This document shows positions 24,281-40,368 of a stretch of 64,000 nucleotides of DNA, one piece after another. The notes below the pieces were generated by a model. The model searched no databases, had not been told where the DNA came from, and worked only from the letters and a program-made list of their open reading frames with translations. The DNA is from an uncultured Methanosarcinales archaeon (lineage in GTDB: Archaea; Nanobdellota; Nanobdellia; Woesearchaeales; GW2011-AR4): assembly GCA_964564925.1 (NCBI GenBank), contig CAZMBY010000001.1, positions 37,929-101,928 on the forward strand. The letters run 5' to 3'. The stretch's first letter is position 1; each line of letters opens with the position of its first letter. The translations under genes were made by a program, and so were the position numbers.

Positions 24281-25021
24281 TCACTTAAACCCGGTTTCCT
24301 CTTTCTCCACCAAAGAAAACGGAGTCTGGTCGAATAGAACTTTCAGCCCGTCTTTGCCTATGGTGATAGGATAGACATCAAGGCTGTGGTCCTGGCCTCT
24401 GAGCTTTGCTACTGTGATAACTCGCTCAAAATAAGAGCCTTTCCTTATCCTTGAAAGCACGATAATTCCTTCAAAAACAAAATCCATCATATCAAATGTC
24501 AGCCTGTCAAAATCAGTGACAGACCTTTCAGAAGCCACCAAGAAAGTCACTCCGGCTTTTTTCATCTGCTGCATGAATATCAGGACCTGCCTTCTGAATT
24601 CCATCTTATTTCCATCAAACTTTGGATAAAGGTACTCAAAAAAAATTAGGGAGTCAAGCGCAACTCTCTTTATATTGTTCTTTTTTATTGCATCGAGCAA
24701 TCCCTTGATAGAAGAGATTCCTCCTTTTAATTCTGCTATCGGCTTTTGCACAAAAAATATCCTGCCTTTTTTTGTCATGGATTCAAGGTCCATTCCAAGG
24801 TTATTTGCGGTCTGATTCATCACCTCAAGGCTTTCCTCTGTTGAAATGAAAATGCCGTTCTCATTGCAGTCTTTTGCACCATAGTAGATAAACTGCAATG
24901 CGAGTATTGTCTTGCCTGTTCCGGGCGCCCCAGTCACTAAAATAGAAGAATTCTTCCTCAAGCCTCCTTTTAATACTTGATCTAGGCCCGAGACGCCTGT
25001 CTTTATCAGCTCTACTGCCAA
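24281..25021 (-). CDS. Single-domain KaiC/RecA-superfamily ATPase (FlaH/ArlH-like)
   Basis: 'GVSGLDQVLKGGLRKNSSILVTGAPGTGKTILALQFIYYGA' (Walker A) and Walker B-like 'RVALDSL'. Length is ~246 aa. Confidence 0.8.
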   Translation of the reverse strand: MAVELIKTGVSGLDQVLKGGLRKNSSILVTGAPGTGKTILALQFIYYGAKDCNENGIFISTEESLEVMNQTANNLGMDLESMTKKGRIFFVQKPIAELKGGISSIKGLLDAIKKNNIKRVALDSLIFFEYLYPKFDGNKMEFRRQVLIFMQQMKKAGVTFLVASERSVTDFDRLTFDMMDFVFEGIIVLSRIRKGSYFERVITVAKLRGQDHSLDVYPITIGKDGLKVLFDQTPFSLVEKEETGFK

Positions 25022-25073
25022 AATATCACCCTTTTTGCTGTTTCAGTTCAAACTTATATAAAAGGCTTATGTT

Positions 25074-25703
25074 TTGCGGCTGCAATACGAAAAGTTTATA
25101 TTTAGAGTGATAGAGTTCATGCTTAAAAAAGTGGTGGAGATGCTCGAATTTAAAGAAACTTTTGATAATGAGGTTAAAAGCCTAAAGGACTACATACTTC
25201 TTATAACAGTTGATGCAAAAAATTACCAAAAAACAGCTATCGATATTGTCAGGTCCTTAATAAATGAGCAGAATGTCCCGGGCGTTTATGTGACATTGAA
25301 TAAGCCATACGAAATAGCCCAGAGATTGCTTTTGGGCAATGGAATAGACCCCAGGCTGATCATCTTTATAGATGCTGCAACCAGAGCAGAAATCCCAAAG
25401 AAAGTTGAAAATTGCCTGTACATCGGAAGCCCGGAAAAATTAAGTGACATGTCTGTTGCTATGGACCAGGCTGTCAAGGCATTAACTACTGAAGAAAAAT
25501 TCTTGATTTTTGACTCCTTAAACACATTGGCTATCTTTAACAAGCCTGCAACTGTGGCCCGCTTCATATATTTTTTGACGGCAAAAATGCGGGAATGGAG
25601 GGTAAAAGGGATAGTGATCACGCTTGAAAAGGAGACTGACCAAGTGATTCTTGACCAACTTACACAGTCATCTGATTTTAGGATTGACATAGGAGGTGAC
25701 TAA
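25074..25703 (+). CDS. Degenerate KaiC/RecA-like domain protein lacking Walker A (pseudo-ATPase)
   Basis: Same fold cues (..VYVTLNKPYEIAQRLL..IIFIDAAT..FLIFDSLNTLAIFNK..) but no GxxGxGKT. Divergently arranged with the KaiC-like gene. An alternative start is at the internal Met (MLKKVVEM). Confidence 0.45.
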   Translation: MRLQYEKFIFRVIEFMLKKVVEMLEFKETFDNEVKSLKDYILLITVDAKNYQKTAIDIVRSLINEQNVPGVYVTLNKPYEIAQRLLLGNGIDPRLIIFIDAATRAEIPKKVENCLYIGSPEKLSDMSVAMDQAVKALTTEEKFLIFDSLNTLAIFNKPATVARFIYFLTAKMREWRVKGIVITLEKETDQVILDQLTQSSDFRIDIGGD

Positions 25704-25705
25704 GA

Positions 25706-26113
25706 GTGGCGTATTTAGTCATAGTCAGCGTAACAACTGTGATATTCGGGATTGCATCGCTTTTGCTGATTTCAAAAGCAAGAAGCAGGCTAAGTGACGG
25801 GTCTATAAGGAGGTATTTGGATAATTTTGCCATATGCCTTGCATTTATGGTGATCTTTTCTGTATGGCAAAGTGCCAGAAATATTTTTGTTGACGGTGCA
25901 GCTGTCAGGGAGCATTCCCAGTATTTAACATACCCCGAGTACATATTTATCGTATTTGCCTATATAGCATTCATCATAGCATCATTCAGGGTAATCAAGA
26001 TAAGCCAGGAATTTGGATTCAAAGAAGATGGCAAGAGAATAGGCCATTTAATAGAAGAAAAAAGGGCTGTTAAAAAAATCGAAATCAAGAAGCGCATGGC
26101 TAAGAAAAAATAG
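25706..26113 (+). CDS. Small membrane protein (3 predicted TM helices) with basic C-terminus
   Basis: Hydrophobic stretches 'LVIVSVTTVIFGIASLLLI', 'LAFMVIFSVW' and 'IFIVFAYIAFIIASF'. Start codon overlaps the upstream gene. Confidence 0.45.
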   Translation: MAYLVIVSVTTVIFGIASLLLISKARSRLSDGSIRRYLDNFAICLAFMVIFSVWQSARNIFVDGAAVREHSQYLTYPEYIFIVFAYIAFIIASFRVIKISQEFGFKEDGKRIGHLIEEKRAVKKIEIKKRMAKKK

Positions 26114-26160
26114 GAATAGCCAAGCTTAAGAAAATCGCAATTGACTGGTATTCTAATAAA

Positions 26161-26571
26161 ATGGCGCATAAATCCCAAATTAGCGTAGAATACATGCTTG
26201 TTATAGGTTTCGCAACGCTGATGTCAATACCTTTGCTCATAATCTATTATACATATTACGCCGAGACAAATGATAGTGTGGCAGCTGGCCAAGCATTGCA
26301 GATAGCTAGAAAGGTGATTGATGCATCTGAATCGGTGTATTATCTTGGAAAGCCATCGCAAACAACTTTAAAGCTGAATTTTCCAAGCAATATCTTTTCA
26401 ACAAACCTGTCAAATAAAGAGGTTGTCTTCAAAATCAATACAAGAAATGGGGTGACTGACATTGTGCAGGTCTCTTCTGTGAATATGAGCGGAAGCCTGC
26501 CTAAAAGCCAAGGTGTCCATATTCTCACACTAAAAGCTGAAGACGGTTATGTTCAAATAACATCAAACTAA
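26161..26571 (+). CDS. Pilin-like protein with class III (type IV pilin-like) N-terminal signal/TM
   Basis: 'MAHKSQISVEYMLVIGFATLMSIPLLIIYY': a short basic N-terminus, then Q and a hydrophobic helix. ~136 aa. Confidence 0.5.
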   Translation: MAHKSQISVEYMLVIGFATLMSIPLLIIYYTYYAETNDSVAAGQALQIARKVIDASESVYYLGKPSQTTLKLNFPSNIFSTNLSNKEVVFKINTRNGVTDIVQVSSVNMSGSLPKSQGVHILTLKAEDGYVQITSN

Positions 26572-26578
26572 AAAAGAG

Positions 26579-26965
26579 GTGGCATTCATCAAGGCGCAAA
26601 TCAGTGCTGAATTTTCCATATTTATAGCTTTAGGCCTGCTGATTGCGATAGCATTCGAAATAGCTTCTTTAAATCAGTTAAATGCTTATCGGCTGCAGAA
26701 GGAAAATGAAGCGGTGAGGGATCTTGCGCTAAAGCTGCAAAAAGAGCTGCTTATAGCCGCTTCTGTCGAGGACGGCTACGTAAGGGTCTTTGAAGTGCCT
26801 GACAACCTTGATACAATAAACTATTCTATAACTACTCAAAACTCAACTCTTTTTGTCCAGTCAAAAAACGGTTTTCATTTTGTGGCAATCCCGAAAATAG
26901 TCGGCAATGTCACCAAAGGCACTAACCTGATAAACAAGACGGAGGGAGTGATTTATGTCAACTGA
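26579..26965 (+). CDS. Pilin-like protein with class III signal peptide (GTG start)
   Basis: 'M(V)AFIKAQISAEFSIFIALGLLIAIAF'. RBS 'aagaggtg' upstream; GTG initiation codon. Confidence 0.5.
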   Translation: MAFIKAQISAEFSIFIALGLLIAIAFEIASLNQLNAYRLQKENEAVRDLALKLQKELLIAASVEDGYVRVFEVPDNLDTINYSITTQNSTLFVQSKNGFHFVAIPKIVGNVTKGTNLINKTEGVIYVN

Positions 26966-27042
26966 TATTCTATGCAAAAAAGAGTTATTTTCAAATGGAA
27001 GAGCAGCAGTTGGAAATTGTTTAGTACACAAAGAGGTGTTAT

Positions 27043-28218
27043 ATGAATTCTAGGGCGCAAGCTTCTTACCTGGATTTTGCAATAGGCATGCTGCTTTTCA
27101 TAATCACATTAGTTGTTTACTACAGCTATACAAATAACATTCAGAAGGAAGAAAAAGATGTGCTAGATGTTATGCTTACCGAAGCTCAATCAATCTCCTC
27201 CTCATTGCTGCTGAGCGGATACCCGGAAGATTGGGACAACAATACTGTTGTGAGAATTGGAGTAGCCGATGATCAAAGGTTAAATGCAGGCAAGCTAAGG
27301 AGCTTCAAGAGATTAAATTATACCAGAACAAAACAAAGCTTTGGAACTCCTTATGAATACTTCGCCTATTTCGTCGGAAAAGATAATGCAGTACTTAACA
27401 TAAATGGAATTTGTGGTGTAGGCCACCCGCTTGTGAATTTGACTTATAAAACAAAAAGTGCATATTATTACCAGGACCCTTCAGATTCCTTCCTCAAGGA
27501 CTTCATGATCAATTCATTTAAGGCTGATTTGTATTTTGACGAAGACCCCGACGATACATATGATATAGATGGGCTGGCAAGCAATCTTACCAAATATGAC
27601 TTGGTTGTCATGGAACACCCAAAGCTGCAGCCATCTAAACTCGACCAGAATTACAGGGAGTTCAACAATTATACTGCAAGGGGTGGCAATTTAATAATAG
27701 GGGGCCTGTTAGTGGATGCTGCCTCTGGATTGGATCTTAATGGGATTACTTTTGACAAAAAAACCGGGCAGTCAGAGCCACAAAGAATAGCCGTTGTGAA
27801 CAACACTGATGTATTATTAGGCTTAGAAATAAATCAGACCATGACTTTCAACCAGTACTACTTTGTCTACAATGACACACCGCCAGTAATTGTTACCGAC
27901 CAAAGCGATGACGACTACAATCCAGTGCCTGCTGATAATTACGAGATATTAGCCGCATACAACAAAACACCAGAGGACGAGGCAATTGCAAAATGGCAGT
28001 ATGGCAATGGAACAGTGTATTTTTTCAGCGATTTCGACGTGATAAATTTTGACAGCAACTTCATAGAAATAATTGAAGATGTTGCTAAAGGCTTGGCTGG
28101 CGGCAACTGCATCTCTATAAATCTAACCGGGATTAATGTAAAGAACCTTGTGAAGACCGAGCGGTACTTGATATACGGGTCCGATATAGTCAAGATGGTG
28201 GTGTATGTATGGCAGTGA
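27043..28218 (+). CDS. Pilin-like N-terminus fused to a ~360-aa globular domain (minor pilin/pilus-associated protein)
   Basis: 'MNSRAQASYLDFAIGMLLFIITLVVYY' class III-like N-terminus. Overlaps the next gene by 10 nt. Confidence 0.5.
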   Translation: MNSRAQASYLDFAIGMLLFIITLVVYYSYTNNIQKEEKDVLDVMLTEAQSISSSLLLSGYPEDWDNNTVVRIGVADDQRLNAGKLRSFKRLNYTRTKQSFGTPYEYFAYFVGKDNAVLNINGICGVGHPLVNLTYKTKSAYYYQDPSDSFLKDFMINSFKADLYFDEDPDDTYDIDGLASNLTKYDLVVMEHPKLQPSKLDQNYREFNNYTARGGNLIIGGLLVDAASGLDLNGITFDKKTGQSEPQRIAVVNNTDVLLGLEINQTMTFNQYYFVYNDTPPVIVTDQSDDDYNPVPADNYEILAAYNKTPEDEAIAKWQYGNGTVYFFSDFDVINFDSNFIEIIEDVAKGLAGGNCISINLTGINVKNLVKTERYLIYGSDIVKMVVYVWQ

Positions 28219-31200
28219 AGAAAGGCATTTTTTTCACAATCGACAGCCTGCTTGCATCAGGAATTGTGATACTGACAGTTCTTCTTGTTTCAACATTTTA
28301 CATAAATGAGCATAAGAAAGTAAATGTAAGCTATGCCTCGCAGGATTTGGTCAGGGTTTTTTCCACTCTTAAAATAGGCGAGGTTGACAATGAGTATGTT
28401 GCGAGCCTTATTTCTTCAGGCGAGATTACAAATGTCAACTACACAATAATTGAGCAGATTGGCGACTTTTGGGCGCAAGACAGGATGGATTTGGCTCAAA
28501 AAATTGCGATTAATTTGACTCATGACTTGATCCCTGCAGCTTATGGGTTCAGCCTGCTTATTGACGAGGAGGAGATATATAGCAGAAATGTGCAATTAAG
28601 AAAAGCACTTGTTTCGTCAAGAAAGCTTGTGACAGGCATAACAAAGGCCCAGCCTACAGACGGATTCAGCGCAAGAGTGCTGCTCCAGGGAATCAAAAGC
28701 AAAAAAACAAATGCTTATGTTTACTTTGGCGGCTATGAGGGGGACGGAAATTTAACAAAAAAACTGACTCTTCCTAATGATGTAACTTCATTCGAAAGCG
28801 CGTATCTTGAAGTCGATGCTGGCGGAAATTTTACCTTGTATATTAATGGATTCGAATCTGGCGATTTCGTCAAGGGTTCAGCTGGCGGGGGGAGCCTATT
28901 GGCTGATAAGTGGAACTTAACAAGTAAAAATCTTACATTCTTCAAAGCAGGAGAAAACACTGTCACTTTAAATTTCACCTCAGACCAAAGTTATATTGCA
29001 GGAGGATTTCTTAAAGTGAAGTATGAAACTTCTTCGTTCAATGGGACTGAGGTGCCGGGATATGAAAAAAATTTGTTGCCGGGAATTGATGGGCTGATCA
29101 ATCTTTACTCTTCTGTTTATTTTCCAAGCAATTTAACTAACATGAGTGTGTACCTTCATTTTAAAAGCTCCAATCCTCTTTATTTGACGATAGGAAACAG
29201 CACAGTATTTGAGTATGGAGGATCTAACCAGATAGTGGAATTTACTCTGAATAGCAGTAATTTGTCAGAATCCATGAAAAGCAGCGCTTTGAGCTACGAT
29301 TTCCTAAAAGGAAAAACTGTCCCATTCAGGCTTGGATTGAGTAGCGGAATTCTTGCAGTTGGGGGGGCTGATTCCATACTGATCACAGACAGAACAAATA
29401 GCATGAGCAAATGCGATGTGCCTGCCAGCTGCTCGTTGTCAGGTTTATGCGACACAAACCCCAATGGGGGGTGCCACATGAGAAGAATTGATGCCGCTGC
29501 TGATAGTGACAGAAAATATATTGAAATTATGCTGAACGAAACAAAAAAAAACAATAAAGTCGGATTGGTGGGATTTGGCTTTGACACAAACCCTGTCTGT
29601 GACATTCGGGACTTTAGCCAAGACAACAGCTCATTAGCCAACTGGACAACATACTACAAGAGAAATGCCTGGTGCGGGAACACCTGCATCTCATGCGGCG
29701 TTTATTCCGCAACACAGATGTTGACAGAAAACGAGAAATTACATGGGTTTAATAAGATCACATTCAATGAGCCAAAGGAGTATAAGCTTGGAGTGAGCAA
29801 TTTCAATTCTGTCACAGTTTATGTCAATACAACATTCAATCCAAGCAATATTGTAAAAGCAAGGCTGTCAATTTTTGGCGATAAAGTTGATGTGGATAGC
29901 GGCCGCCAGGATTGCATATACTTCAATAATCGCTATATTGGGAGAATGTGTGAAACGAAAGGCGTAAAGCTAAGCTACCATACATGCCAGTATGTGATTA
30001 AGCCGGAATGGTTCAATACAGACGATTTGAGTAAAAACAACATAACAGTTACTGCCGGCACCAACTCAAACTGCTTTGGAGGGGCTGGAACAGAGGACAA
30101 TTGGAATTTAACTGATATAACCTTGATTGCATGGGAAGCTGATGAACCCCCAAGCATAATTTTCAATTCGACTTATGATAATGCCCAATATGCAGACGGC
30201 ATAGAGCTCAGCAAGACGCAAATAACAAATTCAACAACTTTCAACATAAGTAACGTGGTCTACATTGAAGAAAACAAAACTAAAATCAAGTCAGCCTGGT
30301 TAGAATTTGAGGCTGCAAATGGGAGCCTTGATAATTTCAATTGCGTGTACGTTAATGGGAATTTTATCGGAAGAGTTGATGCCCAGGAATGGAATTCGAC
30401 AAACAACAACAAATGGCAAAAGGTGATGTTTGATGTTCCAGATATTTTCCTGCGAAACGGCACAAATGAAGTAAACTTGACAAGCGGCACGTCTCAAAAC
30501 TGCAAGGGTTCAACTGGTAATACCCATGACAAGTGGCGCTTTAGGAATTTGAGCCTGACAGTTTTATGGTCAGATGCCAATTCAAAATATAACAGGCACA
30601 AGTCAATGCTCGTCATGAGCGATGGCATAGCAACCGAGGTGCTAGACAGAAGAAACGCCCAATATGCTGAAGCAAGGGATGAAGTTGTTGACAAGGCTTG
30701 CGAAGCACATAACCTCTTCAATATATCAATTTATACTGTAGCAATGGGTGATGCCGCTGACGCTCCAACACAGATGATGCAGGACGCTGCATGCTGTGAT
30801 AATTGCTCACATTATTATCGAGCAGAATCGCTTGATGAATTGCTAAATGTCTATGGGGAGATTGCAGCACTGTTGTCGAATGTAGCTTTTGAAGAAGGCT
30901 CTCAAACAGCGTTCTCCGGCTCCTTTTTTGAAAGGACGTCGTTGTTCCCGGACTCGTTCATCGATTTCAATTACACCTTGCCGGATTTTGAATTCAATAG
31001 GCTGCCTTTGGTTTTCGAAACAAACAGGTTCGGCAACGACATATCTTCCGGGCCATTAACAATATACCAAAACACCACATTTTCTGAAGGCAAGGTAACT
31101 TCTTATTCCAGTTCAATGTGGACTGACAAAGTGCTTGTGAACGGGACTTTAACATTCGATCTGGGAATATATGGGAATTACTCATCAAATGATCCAACAA

Positions 31201-31694
31201 TGACGAAGGTCTATAGAAACATCGGGGATCCGTTCACAGTGAATATACCTGCCAGTATGATTGATGAAGGAATTTATAATATTACTGTAAGCACAGGGAC
31301 AAACTCCTCAAACCCAACAAATGGCTCAGCGGATAACATGGTAATATACACGTTGCTCTTAAACACATTCACAGACTACAGCCCGGTTGTTGCAGAATCC
31401 GATGGCTGCTCCTGGACTGTGGAATTTCAGGATGGCACGTCATCATTAATCGACATTCCATTGGGCTATAACGGGCCCGATACCTGCAGCTTTACTGCAG
31501 CATTGAAAAAATACAGCTCGAATGATTCTGTGGAAACTGTGGTATTTCAGCTGTTCAAGAACCTCGACATAGACAAGGACGGCAGGCTTGACGTGAACAT
31601 TGACGCAAGCAGTCTGGAGGTCAACACCCTGACCATTTCAAAAGTGCCGTCTTTATGGGGACCTGCTGTTGTTGAAATCAGCGTATGGGAGTGA
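28209..31694 (+). CDS. 1161-aa pilin-like N-terminus protein containing a von Willebrand factor A (VWA) domain; candidate pilus-tip adhesin
   Basis: N-terminal 'MAVKKGIFFTIDSLLASGIVILTVLLV'. VWA/MIDAS-like motifs 'ILITDRTNSMSKCD' (DxTxS), 'MLVMSDGIATEV' and 'IYTVAMGDAAD' are separated by a large insertion. Many Cys and N-x-S/T sequons. Confidence 0.65.
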   Translation: MAVKKGIFFTIDSLLASGIVILTVLLVSTFYINEHKKVNVSYASQDLVRVFSTLKIGEVDNEYVASLISSGEITNVNYTIIEQIGDFWAQDRMDLAQKIAINLTHDLIPAAYGFSLLIDEEEIYSRNVQLRKALVSSRKLVTGITKAQPTDGFSARVLLQGIKSKKTNAYVYFGGYEGDGNLTKKLTLPNDVTSFESAYLEVDAGGNFTLYINGFESGDFVKGSAGGGSLLADKWNLTSKNLTFFKAGENTVTLNFTSDQSYIAGGFLKVKYETSSFNGTEVPGYEKNLLPGIDGLINLYSSVYFPSNLTNMSVYLHFKSSNPLYLTIGNSTVFEYGGSNQIVEFTLNSSNLSESMKSSALSYDFLKGKTVPFRLGLSSGILAVGGADSILITDRTNSMSKCDVPASCSLSGLCDTNPNGGCHMRRIDAAADSDRKYIEIMLNETKKNNKVGLVGFGFDTNPVCDIRDFSQDNSSLANWTTYYKRNAWCGNTCISCGVYSATQMLTENEKLHGFNKITFNEPKEYKLGVSNFNSVTVYVNTTFNPSNIVKARLSIFGDKVDVDSGRQDCIYFNNRYIGRMCETKGVKLSYHTCQYVIKPEWFNTDDLSKNNITVTAGTNSNCFGGAGTEDNWNLTDITLIAWEADEPPSIIFNSTYDNAQYADGIELSKTQITNSTTFNISNVVYIEENKTKIKSAWLEFEAANGSLDNFNCVYVNGNFIGRVDAQEWNSTNNNKWQKVMFDVPDIFLRNGTNEVNLTSGTSQNCKGSTGNTHDKWRFRNLSLTVLWSDANSKYNRHKSMLVMSDGIATEVLDRRNAQYAEARDEVVDKACEAHNLFNISIYTVAMGDAADAPTQMMQDAACCDNCSHYYRAESLDELLNVYGEIAALLSNVAFEEGSQTAFSGSFFERTSLFPDSFIDFNYTLPDFEFNRLPLVFETNRFGNDISSGPLTIYQNTTFSEGKVTSYSSSMWTDKVLVNGTLTFDLGIYGNYSSNDPTMTKVYRNIGDPFTVNIPASMIDEGIYNITVSTGTNSSNPTNGSADNMVIYTLLLNTFTDYSPVVAESDGCSWTVEFQDGTSSLIDIPLGYNGPDTCSFTAALKKYSSNDSVETVVFQLFKNLDIDKDGRLDVNIDASSLEVNTLTISKVPSLWGPAVVEISVWE

Positions 31695-31719
31695 AGGTAT
31701 AATGGAGTGAATATTTAGA

Positions 31720-32646
31720 ATGAACAAGAAAGCAATAATCTATACTGCTGCCGCAATAGCGCTGACCATTGTAATTGTTTTGACATACAGCTCTTATACT
31801 TCCTTCAGGTTAAATGAGAGAATGAGCCCTATACAGACAAGGATCGAGACAGTCAATTTCTTCATCAAGGATGTTGAAAACGATTTGGGAAAGGGAATTT
31901 TCATTGCCGGATTCAGGACGTTGCTCAGTCTCAACCAATTCATCGCCACAAATGGGACATTTATTGATGACGTAAATGAAAGGTTCAAAGAAGCCTTTCT
32001 CAACGGCACTATCAAAAATATTTCGTTCAGCTTAATGCAGGACTCCACTTTTACCGATTGGGCTGACAAGATTTCAGCTCAGGCAGATAAGGTTGATGTG
32101 ACATTTAATTATTCAATAAATGATATAAAATTGAACCAGAGTAGTCCGTGGTCTGTAGAGATTGGAGTCAATATAACTTTGGAGATAAGTGACAAGCGAA
32201 ATACAAGCTATTGGGTTAGGGACAGATTCCTGATTACAAAAATAAGCATAATAGACTTTGAAGATCCGCTTTATATAGTACATAGCGGTGGAAGAGTTAC
32301 AAATACCATAAGAATTTCAAATATCACAAAGTTTGTGGTTAACGGGGATGTTGAAAACCTTCTTGTGCATACTAATGAGTCATTTTATATTGTCCACAAC
32401 GACAGCCCAAGCTTCTTGATGAGATTGGAAGGCGAAATAGGGAATTCAAGTGCCGGCATAGAAAGCCTTGTTAACTTAGATGAATTTATCGGACAAGGCC
32501 TGCCAGTCAAGGACAGGAGCATAGTAGACTCCATATATTTTGGAACACAAAGTACGGTTAATTACAGGATTAACAAAACACCCGAATGGTTCAAAATTGA
32601 CCAGGACCATCTTGATATTTACCAGGTGACAAATATCACCATCTAA
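31720..32646 (+). CDS. Pilin-like N-terminus protein (308 aa), pilus-associated
   Basis: 'MNKKAIIYTAAAIALTIVIVLTY' followed by a beta-rich domain. Confidence 0.5.
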   Translation: MNKKAIIYTAAAIALTIVIVLTYSSYTSFRLNERMSPIQTRIETVNFFIKDVENDLGKGIFIAGFRTLLSLNQFIATNGTFIDDVNERFKEAFLNGTIKNISFSLMQDSTFTDWADKISAQADKVDVTFNYSINDIKLNQSSPWSVEIGVNITLEISDKRNTSYWVRDRFLITKISIIDFEDPLYIVHSGGRVTNTIRISNITKFVVNGDVENLLVHTNESFYIVHNDSPSFLMRLEGEIGNSSAGIESLVNLDEFIGQGLPVKDRSIVDSIYFGTQSTVNYRINKTPEWFKIDQDHLDIYQVTNITI

Positions 32647-32689
32647 AAACATAAGATTTTTATATGCATAAACAAAAAATTTTAACAAA

Positions 32690-33835
32690 ATGGAAATTGA
32701 AAGCAGCATAATAGAGACCGGTGTTGACAAGCTGGTAAGTTTGGTTAAAGTAAGAGGCAAAATAGCCCTGTCAGATGCTGCGAAAGAACTTGGAGTCAGC
32801 ACAACTGTAGTCCAGGAATGGGTCGATTTTCTCGAAGATGAGGGGATTATAAGCGTTGAGTACAAACTAACAAAGCCCTTCCTTGTAGAAAGGAAACTTA
32901 CTAAAAAAGAGGTTGATGCGAAGGCAAAGGAGTTTATAGGCAAAAAAGATGTTTTTGTTAGGAAAGCTGAAGTGAACCTTAGCTTTCTTGAAAAACAGGC
33001 AGACGAGCTAAGGAAAGTGAAAGAGGAATTTGAGAAATTAAAAAAAGACCTTGGCTTGGATCTTGGAACTCTAAAAGATGAGTTAAATGAGATTGAAAGG
33101 TATCAGCAGTTAAAGGAGGAAGTGCAAAAACAGGCGGAAGAGCAAAAGAAAGAGGCCCAATTGAGGATAGTCCAACTGGCAAAAGAGATTGAAAGAGAGC
33201 AAAAGAAATATCAGGAGTTTGTATCTGAAGTCAATATCGAAAGAGAACAATTGCTCAAAGAAAAGAAAGAAGCAGTTTCCATAGAGGAAAGCGAAGAAGC
33301 ATTAAACGCCAGATTGATTGAACTGAAAGACATGGTGGGCAAGCTGGAAAAAAAGCTTTCAGATGAAGGTGTCGCAGTAAAAAATTCAGAAGCGCATATA
33401 CAGAGGCTAAACCTCCTTATGGAAGAGGTAAAGCAACGCGTTGCAGAGGAAAAGGGGATAGTCGAGCCTTTAATAGAAAAAAATAAGGAGCAGGAACGAA
33501 AAATACTTGACCTTCAGGATCAAGTCCTGAAGAAGATAAGTGAAAATGAAAAAAGAGCGTCAAATGCCAAGGATCTGACAAAGAGATTTAAAGTTATTTT
33601 TGAGAAAAGAGTGGGTGCATTGGATTTGATTTACAAAGTGAACAAAGACCGTGATGAATTGGAAAAAAACCTTATGGAATTGATAAGGAAAGCCAAGTCT
33701 TTTCAGCTGACCATGAAAAAAGGAGATGTAAGCAAGGAAATGATTGAGCTGGAGAAAAAATTCAGCGAAGTTAACCAAAAAAAGAGCATTTTTGAAGAGG
33801 AGCTTAAGAAGCTAACATCATTTTTTAGGATGTAA
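32690..33835 (+). CDS. Winged-helix plus long coiled-coil protein (pilus/archaellum accessory, FlaC/D/E-like?)
   Basis: N-terminal 'KIALSDAAKELGVSTTVVQEWVDFLEDEGIISVEY' wHTH, then ~300 aa of heptad-rich K/E sequence. Confidence 0.5.
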   Translation: MEIESSIIETGVDKLVSLVKVRGKIALSDAAKELGVSTTVVQEWVDFLEDEGIISVEYKLTKPFLVERKLTKKEVDAKAKEFIGKKDVFVRKAEVNLSFLEKQADELRKVKEEFEKLKKDLGLDLGTLKDELNEIERYQQLKEEVQKQAEEQKKEAQLRIVQLAKEIEREQKKYQEFVSEVNIEREQLLKEKKEAVSIEESEEALNARLIELKDMVGKLEKKLSDEGVAVKNSEAHIQRLNLLMEEVKQRVAEEKGIVEPLIEKNKEQERKILDLQDQVLKKISENEKRASNAKDLTKRFKVIFEKRVGALDLIYKVNKDRDELEKNLMELIRKAKSFQLTMKKGDVSKEMIELEKKFSEVNQKKSIFEEELKKLTSFFRM

Positions 33836-33861
33836 ATTATTTATCAAAAGAGGTGTAGATT

Positions 33862-35541
33862 TTGTTTAAAAAATTCAGCTTGAATAGAAGTAAAGAGGAC
33901 AAAAAGATAACAACGGCTAAAGAGGAGCATATAAATGAGGAAAGCAAACCTCATGTAAAGGGTCAAGCAGTAAAATTAACGGGCCTGCCTCCAATTGAAA
34001 TAAAGCCGAAGGCTATTGAAAAAAAGCATGCGGATAAACAAGCACTTCATGCCAAGAAAGAAGATGCCAACTTGCTTGCAACATACAACTTTGTATCGGA
34101 CAACATACCCATCATCATCAATATTTACAAAAAAAAAGGCGAATTTGTCCCCATATATGAAGTTTCAATATCAAGCATAAGCAAAAATACTGAGATTATT
34201 CTTGAAAAGATCAGGGAAGAATTGACCACCCAAGTGAGTTTAGGCATGGTCGACATTCTTGCAACAAAGGACACAGGGATCGTTGAGCAGAGGTTCATGG
34301 AGGCAATAACCCTGTTGGTCAACAAGCATTTCCCAGATGCTGACGACCAAACGGTGAATTTCCTCAAATCTTACGTGATACAAAGGAGCCTTGGGCTGGG
34401 CAGCGTGGAAATTCTCATGGATGACAACAACCTTGAGGAGATAGCCATAAATAACGCAGACGAGCCGGTATGGGTCTATCACATCAAATTCGGCTGGCTT
34501 AAGACAAGTGTTATGCTGCAAAGTGAGGACCAGATAAGGCATTACGCCACGATGATTGGAAGAAGGGTAGGGAGGCAGATAACAATACTTGAGCCTTTGA
34601 TGGATGCCCATCTCAGGGGGGGCGATAGGGTGAATGCAACGCTTGAGCCGATTTCTGTCCAAGGAAATACAATTACTTTAAGAAAATTCGCAGCCAAGCC
34701 CTGGACGATTACTGACTTCATAAAAAGCAATGCAATCTCATCAGAAGCTGCTGCGCTAATATGGCTGGGGGTGCAATTCGAACTCTCAGCATTAATATCC
34801 GGCGGAACAGCGACTGGAAAAACCTCTATGCTGAATGTTGTCGCAAATTTCTTTCCCCCTAACCAAAGGATCATAAGCATAGAGGATACACGGGAGATAC
34901 AGCTCCCAAAATTCCTGCATTGGCTCCCAATGGTAACAAGGCTTCCAAATCCGGAAGGCAAAGGCGAGGTTTCAATGCTTGACTTGCTGGTTAACTCTTT
35001 AAGGATGAGGCCTGACAGGATTATAGTTGGGGAAATAAGAAGGAAAAGGGAAGCAGAGGTGCTTTTTGAAGCCATCCATACTGGCCATTCAGTTTATGCA
35101 ACTGTCCACGCAAATGACACTCAGGAGACGATAACCAGGCTGTCAAACCCGCCAATAGAGATTCCAAAAACAATGCTGCCTGCTATATCGATGATTGTTG
35201 TGCAGTATAGAAACAGAAGAACAGGCGTAAGAAAAACATTCCAAATAGCTGAAATTTTACCTGATTCCGAGCCTAATGTGCTTTTGCAATTGGATATAAG
35301 GCAAGGTGTTTTAAAAAAAATTGCAGAATCAAAAGCTTTGCTAGGCACAATTGAAATGTTCACAGGCTTTACAAGAAACGAATTGAAGGGCTCTTTGCAG
35401 GAGAAAGAGGATATTTTGAAATGGCTTGCAAAGAACAGCATTAACACTGTGGACACTGTAGGAAGAGTAATGGCTGAGTATTACACAAATAAGGACAATC
35501 TAATGAAATACGTCAAAAGCAACAGGATATTGGGCGACTAA
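33862..35541 (+). CDS. FlaI/ArlI-TadA-VirB11 family secretion ATPase (type IV pilus/archaellum assembly ATPase)
   Basis: Walker A 'ISGGTATGKTSMLN', Asp box 'IISIEDTREIQ', Walker B 'RPDRIIVGEIR', His box 'HTGHSVYATVHAN'. Confidence 0.85.
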   Translation: MFKKFSLNRSKEDKKITTAKEEHINEESKPHVKGQAVKLTGLPPIEIKPKAIEKKHADKQALHAKKEDANLLATYNFVSDNIPIIINIYKKKGEFVPIYEVSISSISKNTEIILEKIREELTTQVSLGMVDILATKDTGIVEQRFMEAITLLVNKHFPDADDQTVNFLKSYVIQRSLGLGSVEILMDDNNLEEIAINNADEPVWVYHIKFGWLKTSVMLQSEDQIRHYATMIGRRVGRQITILEPLMDAHLRGGDRVNATLEPISVQGNTITLRKFAAKPWTITDFIKSNAISSEAAALIWLGVQFELSALISGGTATGKTSMLNVVANFFPPNQRIISIEDTREIQLPKFLHWLPMVTRLPNPEGKGEVSMLDLLVNSLRMRPDRIIVGEIRRKREAEVLFEAIHTGHSVYATVHANDTQETITRLSNPPIEIPKTMLPAISMIVVQYRNRRTGVRKTFQIAEILPDSEPNVLLQLDIRQGVLKKIAESKALLGTIEMFTGFTRNELKGSLQEKEDILKWLAKNSINTVDTVGRVMAEYYTNKDNLMKYVKSNRILGD

Positions 35542-35542
35542 A

Positions 35543-36370
35543 ATGAGGACTGACATATTCAAGACTCTGTTCCAGCGGGTTTCAAAGTCATTTCCAAACC
35601 TTAGGCTGAAGCTGAAGCAGGCTGGCATGGATGACAAGCCAGATTTGTTTATCAAGAAAACTTTTGTCACGTCATTCTATATGACAACAGGGGTCGTTGT
35701 TTCGTTATTTCTGGTGCTCGCTAAATTGGACGTCCTAAAGGGAGTGATATTCCTGATTATACCTGTTATTTTTGTTGTGATGCTTTTTTATCTTATGAGG
35801 CTCCCGGATGCAAAAATATCAAGGAAAGAAAGGGAGATAAGCAAGGAAATTGTCTTTGCAGGAAGGTTCATCATAATAGAGCTGGAGTCCGGCGTGCCTC
35901 TCTATAATGCAATGGTCAATGTTTCAAAAAACTATGAGATTATAGGGAAATACTTCAAGGAGATAACAGACAAAGTCGACCTTGGAACAAGCATTGAGGA
36001 TGCATTGAATGAAGCGGTAGAGTTCATCCCCTCAAATGACTTCAGAAAAATACTTTGGCAAATCATAAACTCGATAAGGACAGGCTCCAATGTTGCAAAG
36101 GCGCTTTACTCTGTGATGGAGCAAATCACAAAAGACCAGATAACAGAGGTCAACAGGTACGGTAAAAAGCTGAACCCGTTAGCGATGTTCTATATGATAG
36201 TGGCAGTTATTTTGCCGTCCTTGGGAATGACAATGCTGATAATACTGTCTTCTTTCATACAATTTGAGCTAAGCCTCACCATTTTGATTGCGCTTGCAGG
36301 CTTTTTGGGATTTGTGCAGTTCATGTTCATATCATTGGTTAAGTTCTCAAGGCCTGCCATTGAGTTTTAA
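35543..36370 (+). CDS. FlaJ/TadB-like polytopic membrane platform protein (first of two separate genes)
   Basis: T2SSF-like domain 'EIVFAGRFIIIELESGVPLYNAMVNVS...IEDALNEAV...VAKALYSVMEQI' flanked by TM helices. Starts 2 nt after the ATPase stop. Confidence 0.7.
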   Translation: MRTDIFKTLFQRVSKSFPNLRLKLKQAGMDDKPDLFIKKTFVTSFYMTTGVVVSLFLVLAKLDVLKGVIFLIIPVIFVVMLFYLMRLPDAKISRKEREISKEIVFAGRFIIIELESGVPLYNAMVNVSKNYEIIGKYFKEITDKVDLGTSIEDALNEAVEFIPSNDFRKILWQIINSIRTGSNVAKALYSVMEQITKDQITEVNRYGKKLNPLAMFYMIVAVILPSLGMTMLIILSSFIQFELSLTILIALAGFLGFVQFMFISLVKFSRPAIEF

Positions 36371-36416
36371 CTTGCATGCGAGTTTTTCTCGCGTGCCACA
36401 GCTTCCATTAAGCACA

Positions 36417-37517
36417 ATGTTCAACCTCAAAAACATATTGAAGAAAAAAAGCGGTGCAGATAAGCAAGAAACTAGAATTGAGTTTTTCAAGAAAAAATTC
36501 AAGAAGGCCCAGGAAAAAAGGACATTATCAGCCCAAAGGAAGCAAAGAATCAGGGAGTATATAGAAAGAGCCGGTCTTGAAGCGAATCCACAAAAGCTTT
36601 CGAAGATTTTTTTTAATACTGCCATTATAATAAACCTTGCAATATCTGCCTATCTTATCTATTACTTCTCTGTCAATTATGGGATTGAGTGGAGCGCGAT
36701 TGTAACTTCTATGCTGGTCCTATGGATCTTTATCTTTATATTCCTGGTTTTTGCATTGTGGATTATATTCTACATAGCAGTGGATTTGAAGATTTTCAGG
36801 AGAAGGGTCGATTTGGAGGATGTCTTACCTGATTTCCTGCAGTTGACTGCCGCAAACATAAATGCAGGCATGACCATTGACAGGGCATTATGGTATTCTG
36901 TCAGGCCAAGATTTGGAGTGCTTGCCAAAGAGATAGAGATGGTTGCCAAGGAAACAATGAGCGGGGTCGATTTGAAGGTTGCATTGGACAAATTTGCTGC
37001 AAGGTATGACTCCGCAATTCTCAAGAGGTCTATCAGCATGATCAATGAAGGAATAGAAGCTGGCGGGCAAATAGGAGATTTGCTTAACAGGATAGCTGTC
37101 AATATCCAGGAGCAGAAATCAATGATGAATGAGATGTCTGCAAACGTCACAACTTATGTGATATTCATAACATTTGCAACAATAGCTGCCGCGCCCTTCC
37201 TGTTCGCCATGTCAGGAGTCTTAATAGGCGTGGTAAAGACGATAGGCACTTCATTGGGCTCAGCGACAACTGCGGCTGCAAGCGCCGGCGTGCCAATAAT
37301 GTTCCAAGGCACAGGCATATCTGAGTCAGATTTTAAGATTTTTTCCGTTGTATCGCTGATAATAACTTCATCATTCTCTGCCATGATGGTATCCACAATA
37401 AAAAAAGGGAACATAAAATCAGGGATAAAATACATACCCATCTTCATAATTGTAACTTTATCGATATATTTCATTGTGCAGGGAGTTTCACAGAAATTGT
37501 TTGTATTTTTTGTTTAA
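36417..37517 (+). CDS. FlaJ/TadC-like polytopic membrane platform protein (second gene)
   Basis: 'DFLQLTAANINAGMTIDRALWYSVRPRFGVLAKEIEMVAKETMSGVDLKVALDKFAARYDSAILKRSISMINEGIEAGGQIGDLLNRIA' T2SSF-like domain plus TM helices. The ORF track starts at 36288. That extension overlaps the upstream gene and a GCATGCGAG…CTCGC hairpin, so the Met at 36417 is preferred. Confidence 0.65.
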   Translation: MFNLKNILKKKSGADKQETRIEFFKKKFKKAQEKRTLSAQRKQRIREYIERAGLEANPQKLSKIFFNTAIIINLAISAYLIYYFSVNYGIEWSAIVTSMLVLWIFIFIFLVFALWIIFYIAVDLKIFRRRVDLEDVLPDFLQLTAANINAGMTIDRALWYSVRPRFGVLAKEIEMVAKETMSGVDLKVALDKFAARYDSAILKRSISMINEGIEAGGQIGDLLNRIAVNIQEQKSMMNEMSANVTTYVIFITFATIAAAPFLFAMSGVLIGVVKTIGTSLGSATTAAASAGVPIMFQGTGISESDFKIFSVVSLIITSSFSAMMVSTIKKGNIKSGIKYIPIFIIVTLSIYFIVQGVSQKLFVFFV

Positions 37518-37640
37518 ATCCTGCAATTAAATGTTTCGAACATTAATTGTGCTGCAATTCAAGCAATTACGGGAATTCACCCGCATCAATCCATATTATT
37601 GATTAGCATGGGAAAGATTTATATATTAGCTATTTAATTG

Positions 37641-37680
37641 ATATATAAAATAAAAATGGAATTTAAATGAGGTGAAGTTA
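37641..37680 (+). promoter_or_regulatory. Putative promoter (TATA 'atatataaaa') and SD-like 'aggtga' for the pilin gene pair
   Basis: The TATA-like box is at 37641-37650, ~35 nt upstream of ATG 37681. 'gaggtgaag' sits 5-9 nt upstream of that ATG. Confidence 0.3.
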
Positions 37681-38133
37681 ATGAGTGATTCTCCTTTGTT
37701 CAAGCCGAAAAAATCCCAAGCTGCCATGGAATTCTTGATGACCTATGGCTGGGCTATACTTGTTGTTCTTGCTGCTATTGCTGCTCTTGCCTATTTTGGC
37801 GTTTTAAGCCCGGAAAAATTTCTTCCGGAAAAGTGCCTTGTAGAGACAGGGTTCACCTGCATAAGCTCAAAGGTAGAGTCTAGCCAATCCACTATCGTGC
37901 TTCAAAACAGCTACGGGAGGAGTGTTGTCATTGACAATATCCAGATTGGCAGCTGTTCCACTGCATTCACAACAACTCTGACAAGCGAGGATCAAAACAA
38001 TTTTGTGCTGACTGGCTGCAGCAACGGCGATGTAAAGGAAGTATTCAAAGGTGAGGTGATTATTAAGTACACGGAAAAGAACACCAATCTTTCAAAAACT
38101 GCATACGGCCAAATAAACACTAAAATAGAATAA
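37681..38133 (+). CDS. Archaeal type IV pilin (class III signal peptide, major pilin candidate)
   Basis: 'MSDSPLFKPKKSQ^AAMEFLMTYGWAILVVLAAIAALAYFG' is a canonical archaeal prepilin processing site (K-S-Q/AA) plus hydrophobic helix, then a ~110-aa beta domain. The ORF track begins at an upstream GTG (37672). Confidence 0.7.
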   Translation: MSDSPLFKPKKSQAAMEFLMTYGWAILVVLAAIAALAYFGVLSPEKFLPEKCLVETGFTCISSKVESSQSTIVLQNSYGRSVVIDNIQIGSCSTAFTTTLTSEDQNNFVLTGCSNGDVKEVFKGEVIIKYTEKNTNLSKTAYGQINTKIE

Positions 38134-38183
38134 ATTTAAATACTAATGATTTTATAAAAAGAATGATAGAGGTGAATTGAATC

Positions 38184-38618
38184 ATGAACCGAAAATCCCA
38201 AGCTGCACTTGAATTTATTATGACTTATGGCTGGGCCATTCTTGTTGTTTTAGTTGCCATAGGCGCCTTGGCATATTTTGGGGTATTAAGCCCTGACAGG
38301 TTCTTGCCGTCAAAATGTGTTCTTCAATCGGGAATAGCATGTGTTGACCACAAAGCTACCTCAACATCGCTTACTGTAGTTGCTCAGAACTCTTTTGGGT
38401 ATGACTTAACGATAACTGATGTCAAAGCCCAGCAGTGCACAGCACAAACTGGATTGACAACATCATTTCCCAATGGGGGGCAGGCAACACTCGTCATGGT
38501 GTGTACAAATTCCGGAAGCAAGTACAATGGTCAGTTTAATATAACCTACAATACACCATCTGATGTTGGCGGCATTTCCCATACTAATATTGGGCAAGTG
38601 ACAACAAGAATTGAGTGA
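38184..38618 (+). CDS. Archaeal type IV pilin paralog
   Basis: 'MNRKSQ^AALEFIMTYGWAILVVLVAIGALAYFG'. ~45% identical to the upstream pilin; RBS 'gaggtga' at 38169-38175. Confidence 0.7.
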   Translation: MNRKSQAALEFIMTYGWAILVVLVAIGALAYFGVLSPDRFLPSKCVLQSGIACVDHKATSTSLTVVAQNSFGYDLTITDVKAQQCTAQTGLTTSFPNGGQATLVMVCTNSGSKYNGQFNITYNTPSDVGGISHTNIGQVTTRIE

Positions 38619-38843
38619 ACGAACTAATTCTTTTTTATTTTTATATTTTGCTTATAAAATCGTATGGCGAATACCCACAGATTACTTTGAAATGACTTAA
38701 AATTTCAAAGTTCACAGAAAATGCAAAGCAATTTCTTAGGACATCAAGAATCTTTGGTTTTTGAGTGATTTCCTAAAAGATAATCTGGGGGCTGAAAACC
38801 AAAACTTTAAGTAATCAAAATTATCTATAATAAAATTCAATTA

Positions 38844-39422
<579 letters not shown>

Positions 39423-39792: not shown

Positions 39793-40368
39793 CTAATCAC
39801 AATATACATACTTTATCGGAAAACTGCATCCAACAGCAGCGCATGACTCGGGAGTCAATCTATTGTCTTGGTCAATTTTATCCTGTATTTTTTCACCCTT
39901 GGAATGATATAAGCATTCAACTTTGGCAATCTCTTCAAGTCGCTTATCAAAGACGCAGCATCCACAGCCGCAGGAGATGTAGTATTCTGGCTCCGGGCCT
40001 TCTTTAGCAGAATTGTTCATTTCTTTCACATAAGCACATTTATTAGAAACACATCTTGCTTCAGGAGCTGGAGCACATTCATTAATCATTCTTGAGCATT
40101 TGGAAGCATATTTTTGCATTTTGCCATAGAATAATTCTTTATCAACTTCCTTATTAATGAAATGATAGCATCCAAATTCAATATAGCTCCCTCCCAATAT
40201 CAAAATATCGCAATCAGAATCAATTTGGCAGTAGTTGGCTTTGTCGATTTCACTTTCTATATCATCATGTTGATTTTGGCAAGAAAGAGGCTGATTCAGA
40301 AAAAAATAGCCTGATCCAGCGACTATAAAGATTGAAGCAATTATAATAAAAATATGTTTCTTCTCCAT
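39793..40368 (-). CDS. Cys-rich secreted/lipoprotein-like protein (191 aa)
   Basis: N-terminal 'HIFIIIASIFIVAGSGYFFL', then 14 Cys including CGCGCC and CxxC-like pairs. Function unknown. Confidence 0.45.
   Translation of the reverse strand: MEKKHIFIIIASIFIVAGSGYFFLNQPLSCQNQHDDIESEIDKANYCQIDSDCDILILGGSYIEFGCYHFINKEVDKELFYGKMQKYASKCSRMINECAPAPEARCVSNKCAYVKEMNNSAKEGPEPEYYISCGCGCCVFDKRLEEIAKVECLYHSKGEKIQDKIDQDNRLTPESCAAVGCSFPIKYVYCD

Follow-up and report, generated by a model that had tools for sequence, protein, structure and literature searches.

A conserved gene cluster for a probable adhesive type IV pilus with a VWA-containing modular pilin in a Woesearchaeal genome

In the present study, we examined a 64-kb stretch of AT-rich DNA (about 40% G+C) from the archaeal contig CAZMBY010000001.1, called the window here, and the type IV pilus-like gene cluster that it carries. 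On the plus strand from 26161 to 38618 lie the genes for five proteins with class III N-termini, a protein with a winged helix-turn-helix (wHTH) domain and a coiled coil, an assembly ATPase, two platform proteins and two pilins. The genes for a KaiC-family ATPase, a degenerate KaiC-like protein and a small membrane protein are placed directly 5' of these pilus genes (24281-26113). Thirteen genes are read from the plus strand (25074-38618) and kaiC (24281-25021) is divergent, on the minus strand. The open reading frames (ORFs) of the locus were all present at or close to the coordinates of an earlier reading of the same DNA (the initial annotation), which had already listed KaiC-like ATPases among its components. 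The KaiC assignment was borne out (Pfam KaiC, E 7e-50), and since this gene falls outside 26161-38618, the start of the locus should be set at about 24281, with kaiC included.

From 25074 to 37517, adjacent genes overlap or are separated by gaps of no more than 77 nucleotides (nt), which is consistent with co-transcription. The operon has a single long intergenic gap (163 nt, 37518-37680), which precedes the pilin genes, and from reading of the sequence we propose that a putative pilin promoter and a ribosome-binding site are placed in it (37612-37675, plus strand), consisting of the TATA-like A/T-rich elements aaagatttatatatt and gatatataaaat and the motif GAGGTGA. This motif ends 6 nt ahead of the ATG at 37681, while the alternative GTG at 37672, which was the mechanical choice, falls within it; for this reason the ATG is the better start of the first pilin gene. 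A T-rich tract, ttcttttttatttttatatttt, stands right behind the stop codon of the second pilin gene (38619-38650, plus strand) and is likely to be the terminator of the operon. Scans of the window for tRNA genes and Rfam families were empty.

To evaluate the conservation of gene order, the proteins of the window were compared by tblastn with 80 related loci. The order of kaiC, the kaiC-like gene, the membrane protein gene, the genes for the class III proteins of 136, 128, 391, 1161 and 308 amino acids (aa), the wHTH/coiled-coil gene, the ATPase gene, the two platform genes and the two pilin genes recurs in dozens of Woesearchaeota/Nanoarchaeota genomes. Because this order recurs from kaiC to the second pilin gene (pilA2) over the related loci, a chance association of the genes is excluded. 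In the loci most closely related to that of the window, the first three genes (kaiC, the kaiC-like DUF7504 gene and the membrane protein gene) are conserved as a set. The closest relatives of the ATPase, the 1161-aa protein and pilin A2 were all found in metagenome-assembled genomes of Woesearchaeota/Nanoarchaeota, which belong to the DPANN archaea. The related assemblies were obtained from groundwater, from filter fractions of 0.1-0.2 um. It is common for a Woesearchaeal genome to contain pilus loci in two or three paralogous copies, whose ATPases share about 77% and about 55-63% identity with that of the window; such loci were seen in nine of the genomes sampled, one of them with three and the others with two. 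A second type of locus in the same genomes (ATPase about 57% identical) has a rearranged order, in which a short pilin core replaces the 1161-aa gene and the 136- and 128-aa genes are located 3' of the pilins. Some contigs with DPANN-type loci (JAFCCF010000049.1 and several related ones) are labelled Aminicenantes bacterium or 'uncultured Methanosarcinales', and these labels are probably errors of binning or of taxonomy assignment. We found no description of the Woesearchaeal locus in the literature, of which our coverage was incomplete, and an earlier description is possible.

The assembly ATPase (559 aa; 33862-35541, plus strand) belongs to the GspE/VirB11/FlaI superfamily (Pfam T2SSE, E 8e-34), in agreement with its first naming as a FlaI/TadA-type enzyme. 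It starts with a variable Lys-rich tail and ends with a PilB3_C-like domain; the match to Pfam PilB3_C (E 2.6e-4, 21.5 bits) is below the cut-off of 27, and this domain is recorded in several of the 80%-identical orthologues. Orthologues with about 80% identity occur throughout Woesearchaeota. In the PDB, the nearest solved relative was AfGspE (2OAP; 234 bits over residues 132-548, an alignment that takes in the C-terminal PilB3_C-like region), followed by FlaI (174 bits) and CpaF (156 bits). Over the catalytic core, identity is highest with AfGspE (39%), then with FlaI (36%) and CpaF (35.5%), and the AfGspE-FlaI pair shares 45%. In a crude neighbour-joining tree, made without bootstrap and with these three solved relatives as references (clade 1 (EpdL), clade 4, Ups, Aap and PilB3 sequences were not in it), the DPANN ATPases formed a clade of their own, sister to the AfGspE+FlaI group. 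Taken together, the tree and the core identities set the window ATPase outside ArlI and exclude its membership there; it may be a deep branch of clade 2, an Epd-like relative or a separate clade. Ten distant hits looked up by cluster carried only the labels 'FlaI' and 'Euryarchaeota archaeon'. Among the NCBIfam models, BasE aligned nearly end to end (residues 61-545) with 152 bits against a cut-off of 1000, and the TadA model TIGR03819 scored 186 bits against 373. Among the DPANN homologues of the ATPase, many have a length of about 1000-1240 aa and match it in two stretches, which meet or overlap at query residues of about 310-343. All three of the long homologues that were checked contain an intein (Intein_splicing plus LAGLIDADG homing endonuclease) inside T2SSE; the window ATPase itself has none.

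The gene immediately 5' of the ATPase encodes a cytoplasmic protein of 381 aa (32690-33835, plus strand), in which an N-terminal wHTH (residues 1-65, approximately) is joined to a long coiled coil. The wHTH is of the Lrp/AsnC/MarR type, with a profile match to LrpA 1i1g (E 6.6e-4) and with HTH_24 in 9 of 24 members, and the coiled coil gave SMC-type matches over residues 96-363, so both halves of the name that the protein had received in the initial annotation were justified. The gene holds this position in 66 of the 80 loci, and the pairing extends to paralogues with about 55% ATPase identity and to one Aenigmatarchaeota locus. Since the adjacency is kept even in distant paralogues, it argues for the two proteins being functional partners and not casual neighbours.

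Downstream of the ATPase gene there are two platform genes. Platform protein 1 (275 aa; 35543-36370, plus strand), whose gene begins 1 nt past the ATPase gene, has a single T2SSF domain (Pfam E 1.1e-15), aligns to residues 33-238 of the 484 of UpsF, that is, to the N-terminal half of the fused archaeal platform protein, and is kept in 68 of the 80 related loci. Platform protein 2 (366 aa from the ATG at 36417; 36417-37517, plus strand) also has a single T2SSF domain (Pfam E 2.2e-12) and aligns to residues 189-462 of the 465 of ArlJ/FlaJ, the C-terminal half. The two proteins are only marginally similar to each other (E 0.17), which fits ancient halves and not a recent duplication. The claim of two separate platform genes with one T2SSF each was thus correct, but the layout is less anomalous than had been implied, as the split is known in archaea. 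Denise 2019 described split TadC/TadB and Epd-like platforms and attributed them to gene fission, and Makarova 2016 reported that clade 1 (Epd) loci, and many of the clade 2 loci of euryarchaea, have a pair of tadC genes. Because it has been reported for Methanococcus Epd, for many clade 2 pili and for bacterial Tad, the split platform is a real yet documented archaeal feature and no anomaly.

The ATPase, platform and class III superfamilies are shared with the archaellum, and here also a KaiC/RecA-family ATPase and a coiled-coil cytoplasmic protein accompany the assembly ATPase. The locus might on these grounds encode a divergent archaellum, that is, a rotating motility filament that keeps ArlH-like (KaiC) and ArlX-like (coiled-coil) parts; in addition, FlaI was the top-scoring NCBIfam model for the ATPase, and the soluble domain of FlaF is among the structural matches of the pilin model described below. 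However, the scores are far below the cut-offs, with 247.8 bits against 550 for the FlaI equivalog, 31 and 12 bits against 400 and 570 for the platform halves and the ArlJ models, and 43.6 bits against 215 for the KaiC protein and ArlH (the NCBIfam KaiC model gave this protein 144 bits). None of the seven class III proteins matched archaellin, ArlF or ArlG in Pfam or NCBIfam at E <= 0.1, and the ArlCDE families had no match among the locus proteins in the same databases. Furthermore, the platform is split, the DPANN ATPases fall outside the AfGspE+FlaI group, and a VWA adhesin with five minor pilins is foreign to the archaellum. We regard an archaellum as very improbable, and the view of the initial annotation that the locus is not a canonical one is well supported.

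The cluster ends with the genes of two major-type pilins, A1 (150 aa; 37681-38133, plus strand; N-terminus ...KPKKS/QAAMEFLMTYGWAILVV, the slash standing for the predicted cleavage site) and A2 (144 aa; 38184-38618, plus strand; N-terminus MNRKS/QAALEFIMTYGWAILVV), which are paralogues with 45% identity. Their N-terminus, [KR][SAG]-QAA[ML]EF[LI][MT]TYGWAILVV, is almost invariant in about 37 related loci and 52 sampled homologues. In A1, the first 35 mature residues hardly change across the 37 or so loci, and in A2 the invariant columns among the 52 sampled homologues are Q6, E10, F11 and four Cys. A2 also carries one conserved N-x-T sequon (N119). The four invariant Cys and this sequon suggest that the pilins are probably disulfide-bonded and N-glycosylated. 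The A2 family has 3266 detectable homologues, which are all unannotated and have no Pfam domain; neither pilin had a match in Pfam or NCBIfam, and a PDB sequence search returned only noise. The AlphaFold2 (AF2) model of A2, with a mean predicted local distance difference test score (pLDDT) of 82.5, consists of an N-terminal helix (residues 3-32) followed by an 8-strand beta-sandwich. When this model was searched with Foldseek, the best PDB match was the Aap filament of S. acidocaldarius 8q30 (E 8.6e-4), then 8fk7, 8tib and 6w8u, and the matches included the pilus of P. calidifontis, the pilus of P. arsenaticum and the tri-pilus of S. islandicus. As modelled, pilin A2 has the archaeal type IV pilin fold.

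In a class III signal peptide, a basic residue occupies position -2 and a small residue position -1. Because of this rule, the pilins are most likely cleaved at K-S/Q-A-A, leaving Gln at +1 and Glu at +5, and not between Q and A. The two short pilins and the start at 37681 given in the initial annotation were upheld, but the cleavage had been drawn one residue too far. This yields an N-terminus of the QxSxE type, as in Pfam Class_IIIsignal. Gln at +1 and Glu/Asp at +5/+6 are present in five of the seven pilin-like proteins (both pilins and three minor ones), and within the window this type of N-terminus is confined to the pilus locus. In Methanococcus, Gln+1 is required by the peptidase EppA (PMC4390842). 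All five upstream proteins begin with a short basic region, a small residue and a hydrophobic helix. The class III N-termini of the seven genes are kept in orthologues from 30-40 other genomes, which confirmed the earlier proposal of five upstream genes with such N-termini and products of 128 to 1161 aa.

Four of these five upstream proteins are of small or intermediate size. The first, of 136 aa (26161-26571, plus strand), begins with MAHKS/QISVEY, and the motif K[SA]/Q[VI]S[VM]EY, which fits the QxSxE(F/Y) class III signal, is kept in about 33 loci. The second, of 128 aa (26579-26965, plus strand; FIKA/QISAEF), has a weak match to Pfam Class_IIIsignal over residues 5-25 (E 0.035), and its motif K[AS]/QxSxEF is kept in 30 loci. 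The third, of 391 aa (27043-28218, plus strand), begins with NSRA/QASYLDF, its orthologues with K[AS]/QAW[YF]MDF. It has 11 N-glycosylation sequons and a C-terminal extension that is absent in some orthologues (158-173 aa), and no family in Pfam or NCBIfam matched it above threshold. The gene for the fourth, of 308 aa (31720-32646, plus strand; MNKKA/IIYTAAAIAL), is placed after the 1161-aa gene. In about 42 loci, its orthologues begin with KK[AGS]/IF[YF]T and continue with a hydrophobic helix; the window protein contains 13 sequons and had no family match in Pfam or NCBIfam.

A set of five non-major pilin-like proteins also recalls the GspH-K sets of type II secretion. The locus could accordingly be read as a pseudopilus or surface-display device of the bindosome or type II secretion type, in which a short stub, periplasmic or spanning the S-layer, would take the place of a long pilus and serve to insert class III proteins (the VWA/lectin protein and those of 391 and 308 aa) at the cell surface and keep them there, or to export the giant surface proteins nearby. 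Large proteins with class III signals and functional domains resemble the bindosome, and the near end-to-end alignment of the ATPase with BasE points the same way, although its score is far below the cut-off. The locus is flanked by glycosylated surface proteins of very large size (615-12230 and 40400-44647), the latter a conserved neighbour. On the other hand, no secretion substrate was identifiable, and two genes are dedicated to pilins and have their own putative promoter. The N-terminal helix of these pilins is nearly invariant over thousands of homologues, and their fold is nearest to the subunits of long archaeal pili. The dedicated genes, the invariant helix and the long-pilus fold argue for a true fibre, and a pseudopilus is considered unlikely, while it is the best placed of the alternatives to an adhesive pilus.

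The largest pilin-like protein of the cluster, of 1161 aa (28209-31694, plus strand), is a candidate for a modular pilin-like adhesin, as judged from its VWA homologues, its AF2 model (mean pLDDT 82.5) and Foldseek. Residues 1-33 form the class III N-terminus, VKKG/IFFTIDS, and a helix, and its orthologues begin with KK[AG]/[IV]FFTIDS. A small helical region (40-104) and beta-sandwich domains (113-377) follow. The VWA domain is composed of residues 387-510 and 797-890, with the metal ion-dependent adhesion site (MIDAS) D394-x-T396-x-S398, T492 and D805, and is split by a variable insert with two jelly rolls (about 515-790). The C-terminal domains (910-1160) are beta-rich. Homologues are about 900, 1130 or 1460 aa long and have Pfam VWA (PF00092/PF13519) and, in some, Laminin_G_3. 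Of 52 homologues, 49-52 keep the MIDAS residues D394, T/S396, S398, T492 and D805. Conservation is lowest in the insert, which 30-48% of the homologues lack. In Foldseek, the model matched carbohydrate-binding and jelly-roll folds (BcsB, PNGase F, reelin repeats), the VWA domain of ITIH1 and the vWA pilin PilB of S. sanguinis (7ba2, E 1.6e-4). The protein also contains 39 sequons and 20 Cys. Because the counterpart gene in some related loci encodes just a pilin-like core of 170-200 aa, we consider from the sequence comparison that the 1161-aa gene arose from a pilin module by the addition of effector modules. By analogy, its closest functional parallels would be PilB of S. sanguinis, PilY1 and TadG.

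This conserved module also bears on whether the pilus might serve DNA uptake or exchange between cells. For a genome-reduced DPANN cell, an Ups-like or competence-like pilus could bring in nucleic acids or establish mating or feeding contacts. DPANN archaea need external nucleotides, type IV pili play such roles elsewhere, and pili together with competence genes are common in ultra-small groundwater organisms (PMC9938205). Against this, what is conspicuous and conserved in the locus is an adhesin with VWA/MIDAS and lectin-like modules, which encodes neither a DNA-binding pilin nor a ComEC-like channel or a nuclease in its conserved part. We judge such a function to be improbable, more so than a pseudopilus and less so than an archaellum.

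With a T2SSE ATPase, an adjoining T2SSF platform and class III subunits made of a helix and a beta-rich head, the traits of a type IV filament are present. We propose, with a probability of roughly 0.75, that the cluster encodes an adhesive type IV pilus whose tip carries a minor-pilin complex with the VWA/lectin protein. The initial annotation had suggested an adhesion pilus with a large tip complex; the VWA domain, its conserved MIDAS and the lectin-like jelly rolls strengthen this suggestion, in which adhesion and tip location are still inference. It is a known kind of machine with an architecture specific to a lineage (Woesearchaeota/DPANN). Its distinctive features are the DPANN-specific clade of the ATPase, the pilin families, which lack annotation, the obligatory pairing with a wHTH/coiled-coil protein and the giant VWA pilin, whose insert varies.

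The assembly of such a pilus may be pictured as follows. Seven prepilins would be trimmed by an A24 peptidase encoded elsewhere, which would remove the basic leader after a small residue (K-S/Q, K-A/Q, K-G/I). The ATPase, presumably a hexamer, would dock on a platform in which the two half-size T2SSF proteins, homologous to its halves, are equivalent to one fused ArlJ/PilC-type protein. The five non-major pilin-like proteins could form the priming complex and end at the tip, by analogy with PilY1 and minor pilins, TadG and PilB. The 1161-aa protein would then expose its MIDAS-bearing VWA domain and lectin-like jelly rolls as an adhesive head for a presumed ligand, and its variable insert may tune the binding target. 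The two abundant pilins, of 130 aa when mature, would polymerise into the fibre by way of N-terminal helices that hardly vary. From their linkage to these genes, an accessory or regulatory role on the cytoplasmic side may be supposed for the KaiC ATPase and its degenerate partner, for the small membrane protein and for the wHTH/coiled-coil protein, comparable with that of ArlH/ArlX in the archaellum.

Several points weigh against an adhesive pilus. No filament has been observed, and the group has no cultured member. The tip position and the adhesive role of the 1161-aa protein are taken from analogy. In Pfam and NCBIfam, no curated family was matched by the pilins or by four of the five minor proteins, and the ATPase was not placed relative to Epd, Ups, Aap or PilB3 references. 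With regard to the prepilin peptidase, a crude motif search through the window and 1.25 Mb of related loci found no ORF with multiple transmembrane (TM) segments and a GxGD(xK) motif, and a 7-TM ORF at 53826-54494 had no family match. Prepilin peptidases are often encoded away from the pilus locus.

Compared with known systems, the locus shares traits with several archaeal and bacterial pili. The clade 2 pili (PilB3-PilC3 with PilA1-6 of Haloferax volcanii; AfGspE of A. fulgidus) resemble it in that AfGspE is the nearest solved ATPase and in that two tadC-like genes, neighbours of the KaiC family and an S-layer-like protein occur in many of their loci. AfGspE was assigned to clade 2, as were the ATPases of Nanoarchaeum and Nst1 (Makarova 2016, supplement). 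However, identity to AfGspE in the core of the window ATPase is no more than 39%, and the DPANN enzymes branch as a clade of their own. The window pilins have Gln+1/Glu+5 N-termini and belong to no curated pilin family, and the window locus has as additional parts the wHTH/coiled-coil protein that accompanies the ATPase, the genes for five minor pilin-like proteins and the giant VWA pilin.

The Epd pili of Methanococcus maripaludis (clade 1) likewise have two contiguous single-T2SSF genes beside the ATPase, a feature of many clade 2 loci as well. They also have Gln+1 pilins, as do both major-type and three minor proteins here ([KR][SAG]/Q), and the model of the Epd locus comprises at least five minor pilins and large adhesin-like proteins with lectin-type domains (Makarova 2016). 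Epd pilins are N-glycosylated via AglB (PMC4390842). In contrast, the major Epd pilins are of about 70 aa and mostly encoded by stand-alone genes, whereas those of the window are of 144-150 aa and encoded in the operon, and the window locus has no gene for EppA (9 TM), FleN/MinD or a transglutaminase. Clade 1 has been reported solely from class I methanogens and Thermococci.

The bacterial Tad/Flp system is similar in the order ATPase-platform-platform, the split platform, the pseudopilin-like minor subunits and a VWA protein with a pilin-like N-terminus, which may be compared with TadG. It differs in that no secretin, TadZ or TadD was found among the locus proteins scanned, the TadA model scored at half its cut-off, CpaF was the most distant of the three solved relatives and the window pilins are three times as long as Flp. 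PilB of S. sanguinis (7BA2), for which the concept of a modular vWA pilin has been described (PMC8179133), and PilY1 of Pseudomonas have in common with the 1161-aa protein a class III signal and pilin helix fused to a MIDAS VWA and lectin-type modules. The archaeal protein is, however, about three times larger, its VWA is broken by the two-jelly-roll insert, and no sequence relationship was detected beyond the VWA fold.

It is possible, although we hold this only tentatively, that the locus represents a deep-branching pilus lineage specific to DPANN that joins Epd/Tad-like and clade 2 traits, and that the VWA/lectin tip pilin could be a device by which an episymbiont of the Woesearchaeota recognises a host or a surface. 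The Epd/Tad-like traits may be seen in the fissioned platform, the Gln+1 pilins, the many minor pilins and the VWA pilin-like protein, and those of clade 2 may be seen in the AfGspE-like ATPase, KaiC and the S-layer-like neighbour. If host recognition is the function, the hypervariable insert would mark host range in genomes, and if the lineage is a deep one, it would bear on the origin of the Tad-type layout. Woesearchaeota and other DPANN archaea are abundant, uncultured and thought to live attached to other cells. For their mode of attachment, the cluster offers concrete candidates, above all the modular pilin with VWA/MIDAS and lectin-like domains. It is among the best-conserved surface machineries of the group, yet the only annotation of its pilins and accessory proteins is 'hypothetical', and defining its parts improves the annotation of thousands of database proteins. 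The locus reveals no new kind of machine, and it is a DPANN data point on the evolution of split-platform (Epd/Tad-type) pili.

In addition to these components, three genes upstream of the pilin-like genes accompany the system. The KaiC-family ATPase (246 aa; 24281-25021, minus strand) has an intact Walker A motif, GAPGTGKT, and its gene adjoins the locus in the 9 related loci that extend far enough upstream. The degenerate KaiC-like protein (209 aa from a mechanical TTG start; 25074-25703, plus strand) matched Pfam DUF7504 (E 5.9e-6) and KaiC (E 4.9e-4) and has no visible Walker A motif. In 16 loci, its gene is found each time immediately 5' of that for the small membrane protein (135 aa; 25706-26113, plus strand), which begins 3 nt past it in the window and takes the same position in all 16. 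This membrane protein has about three hydrophobic segments and a Lys-rich tail, and no match in Pfam or NCBIfam. Linkage of KaiC-family genes to archaeal pilus loci has been described (Makarova 2016).

The pilin-like proteins have 2.2-4.2 sequons per 100 aa, as compared with 0-0.8 for those proteins of the locus that are cytoplasmic, and this higher density fits an extracellular site. An AglB/STT3 oligosaccharyltransferase (1129 aa, about 12 TM segments; Pfam STT3, E 1.8e-35), with a GT2 glycosyltransferase right after it (49312-53370, plus strand), is encoded 11 kb downstream of the pilus locus. Between them lies the gene of a large surface protein of 1415 aa (40400-44647, minus strand) with 98 sequons (6.9 per 100 aa), a linker of poly-Ser/Gly and Pro/Thr and a C-terminal membrane anchor. 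In 14 related loci, a homologue with 35-57% identity is encoded downstream on the opposite strand. This protein may be an S-layer-like partner of the pilus, which is uncertain; S-layer-like proteins adjoin PilA-type loci (Makarova 2016).

Two other neighbours were rejected as parts of the system. A DUF4256 protein (38844-39422, plus strand; Pfam E 6.5e-91) has a homologue in none of the 80 related loci, so its gene may be a recent insertion. A Cys-rich ORF of 191 aa (39793-40368, minus strand), with 16 cysteines, an N-terminal hydrophobic segment and no family match, likewise has no homologue in any related locus. Finally, far upstream of the pilus genes, a giant ORF (615-12230, plus strand) encodes 3871 aa, has a hydrophobic segment at its N-terminus and matches Pfam families only faintly (bMG3, PTPLA), and its product is probably a very large surface protein of the kind typical of DPANN genomes.

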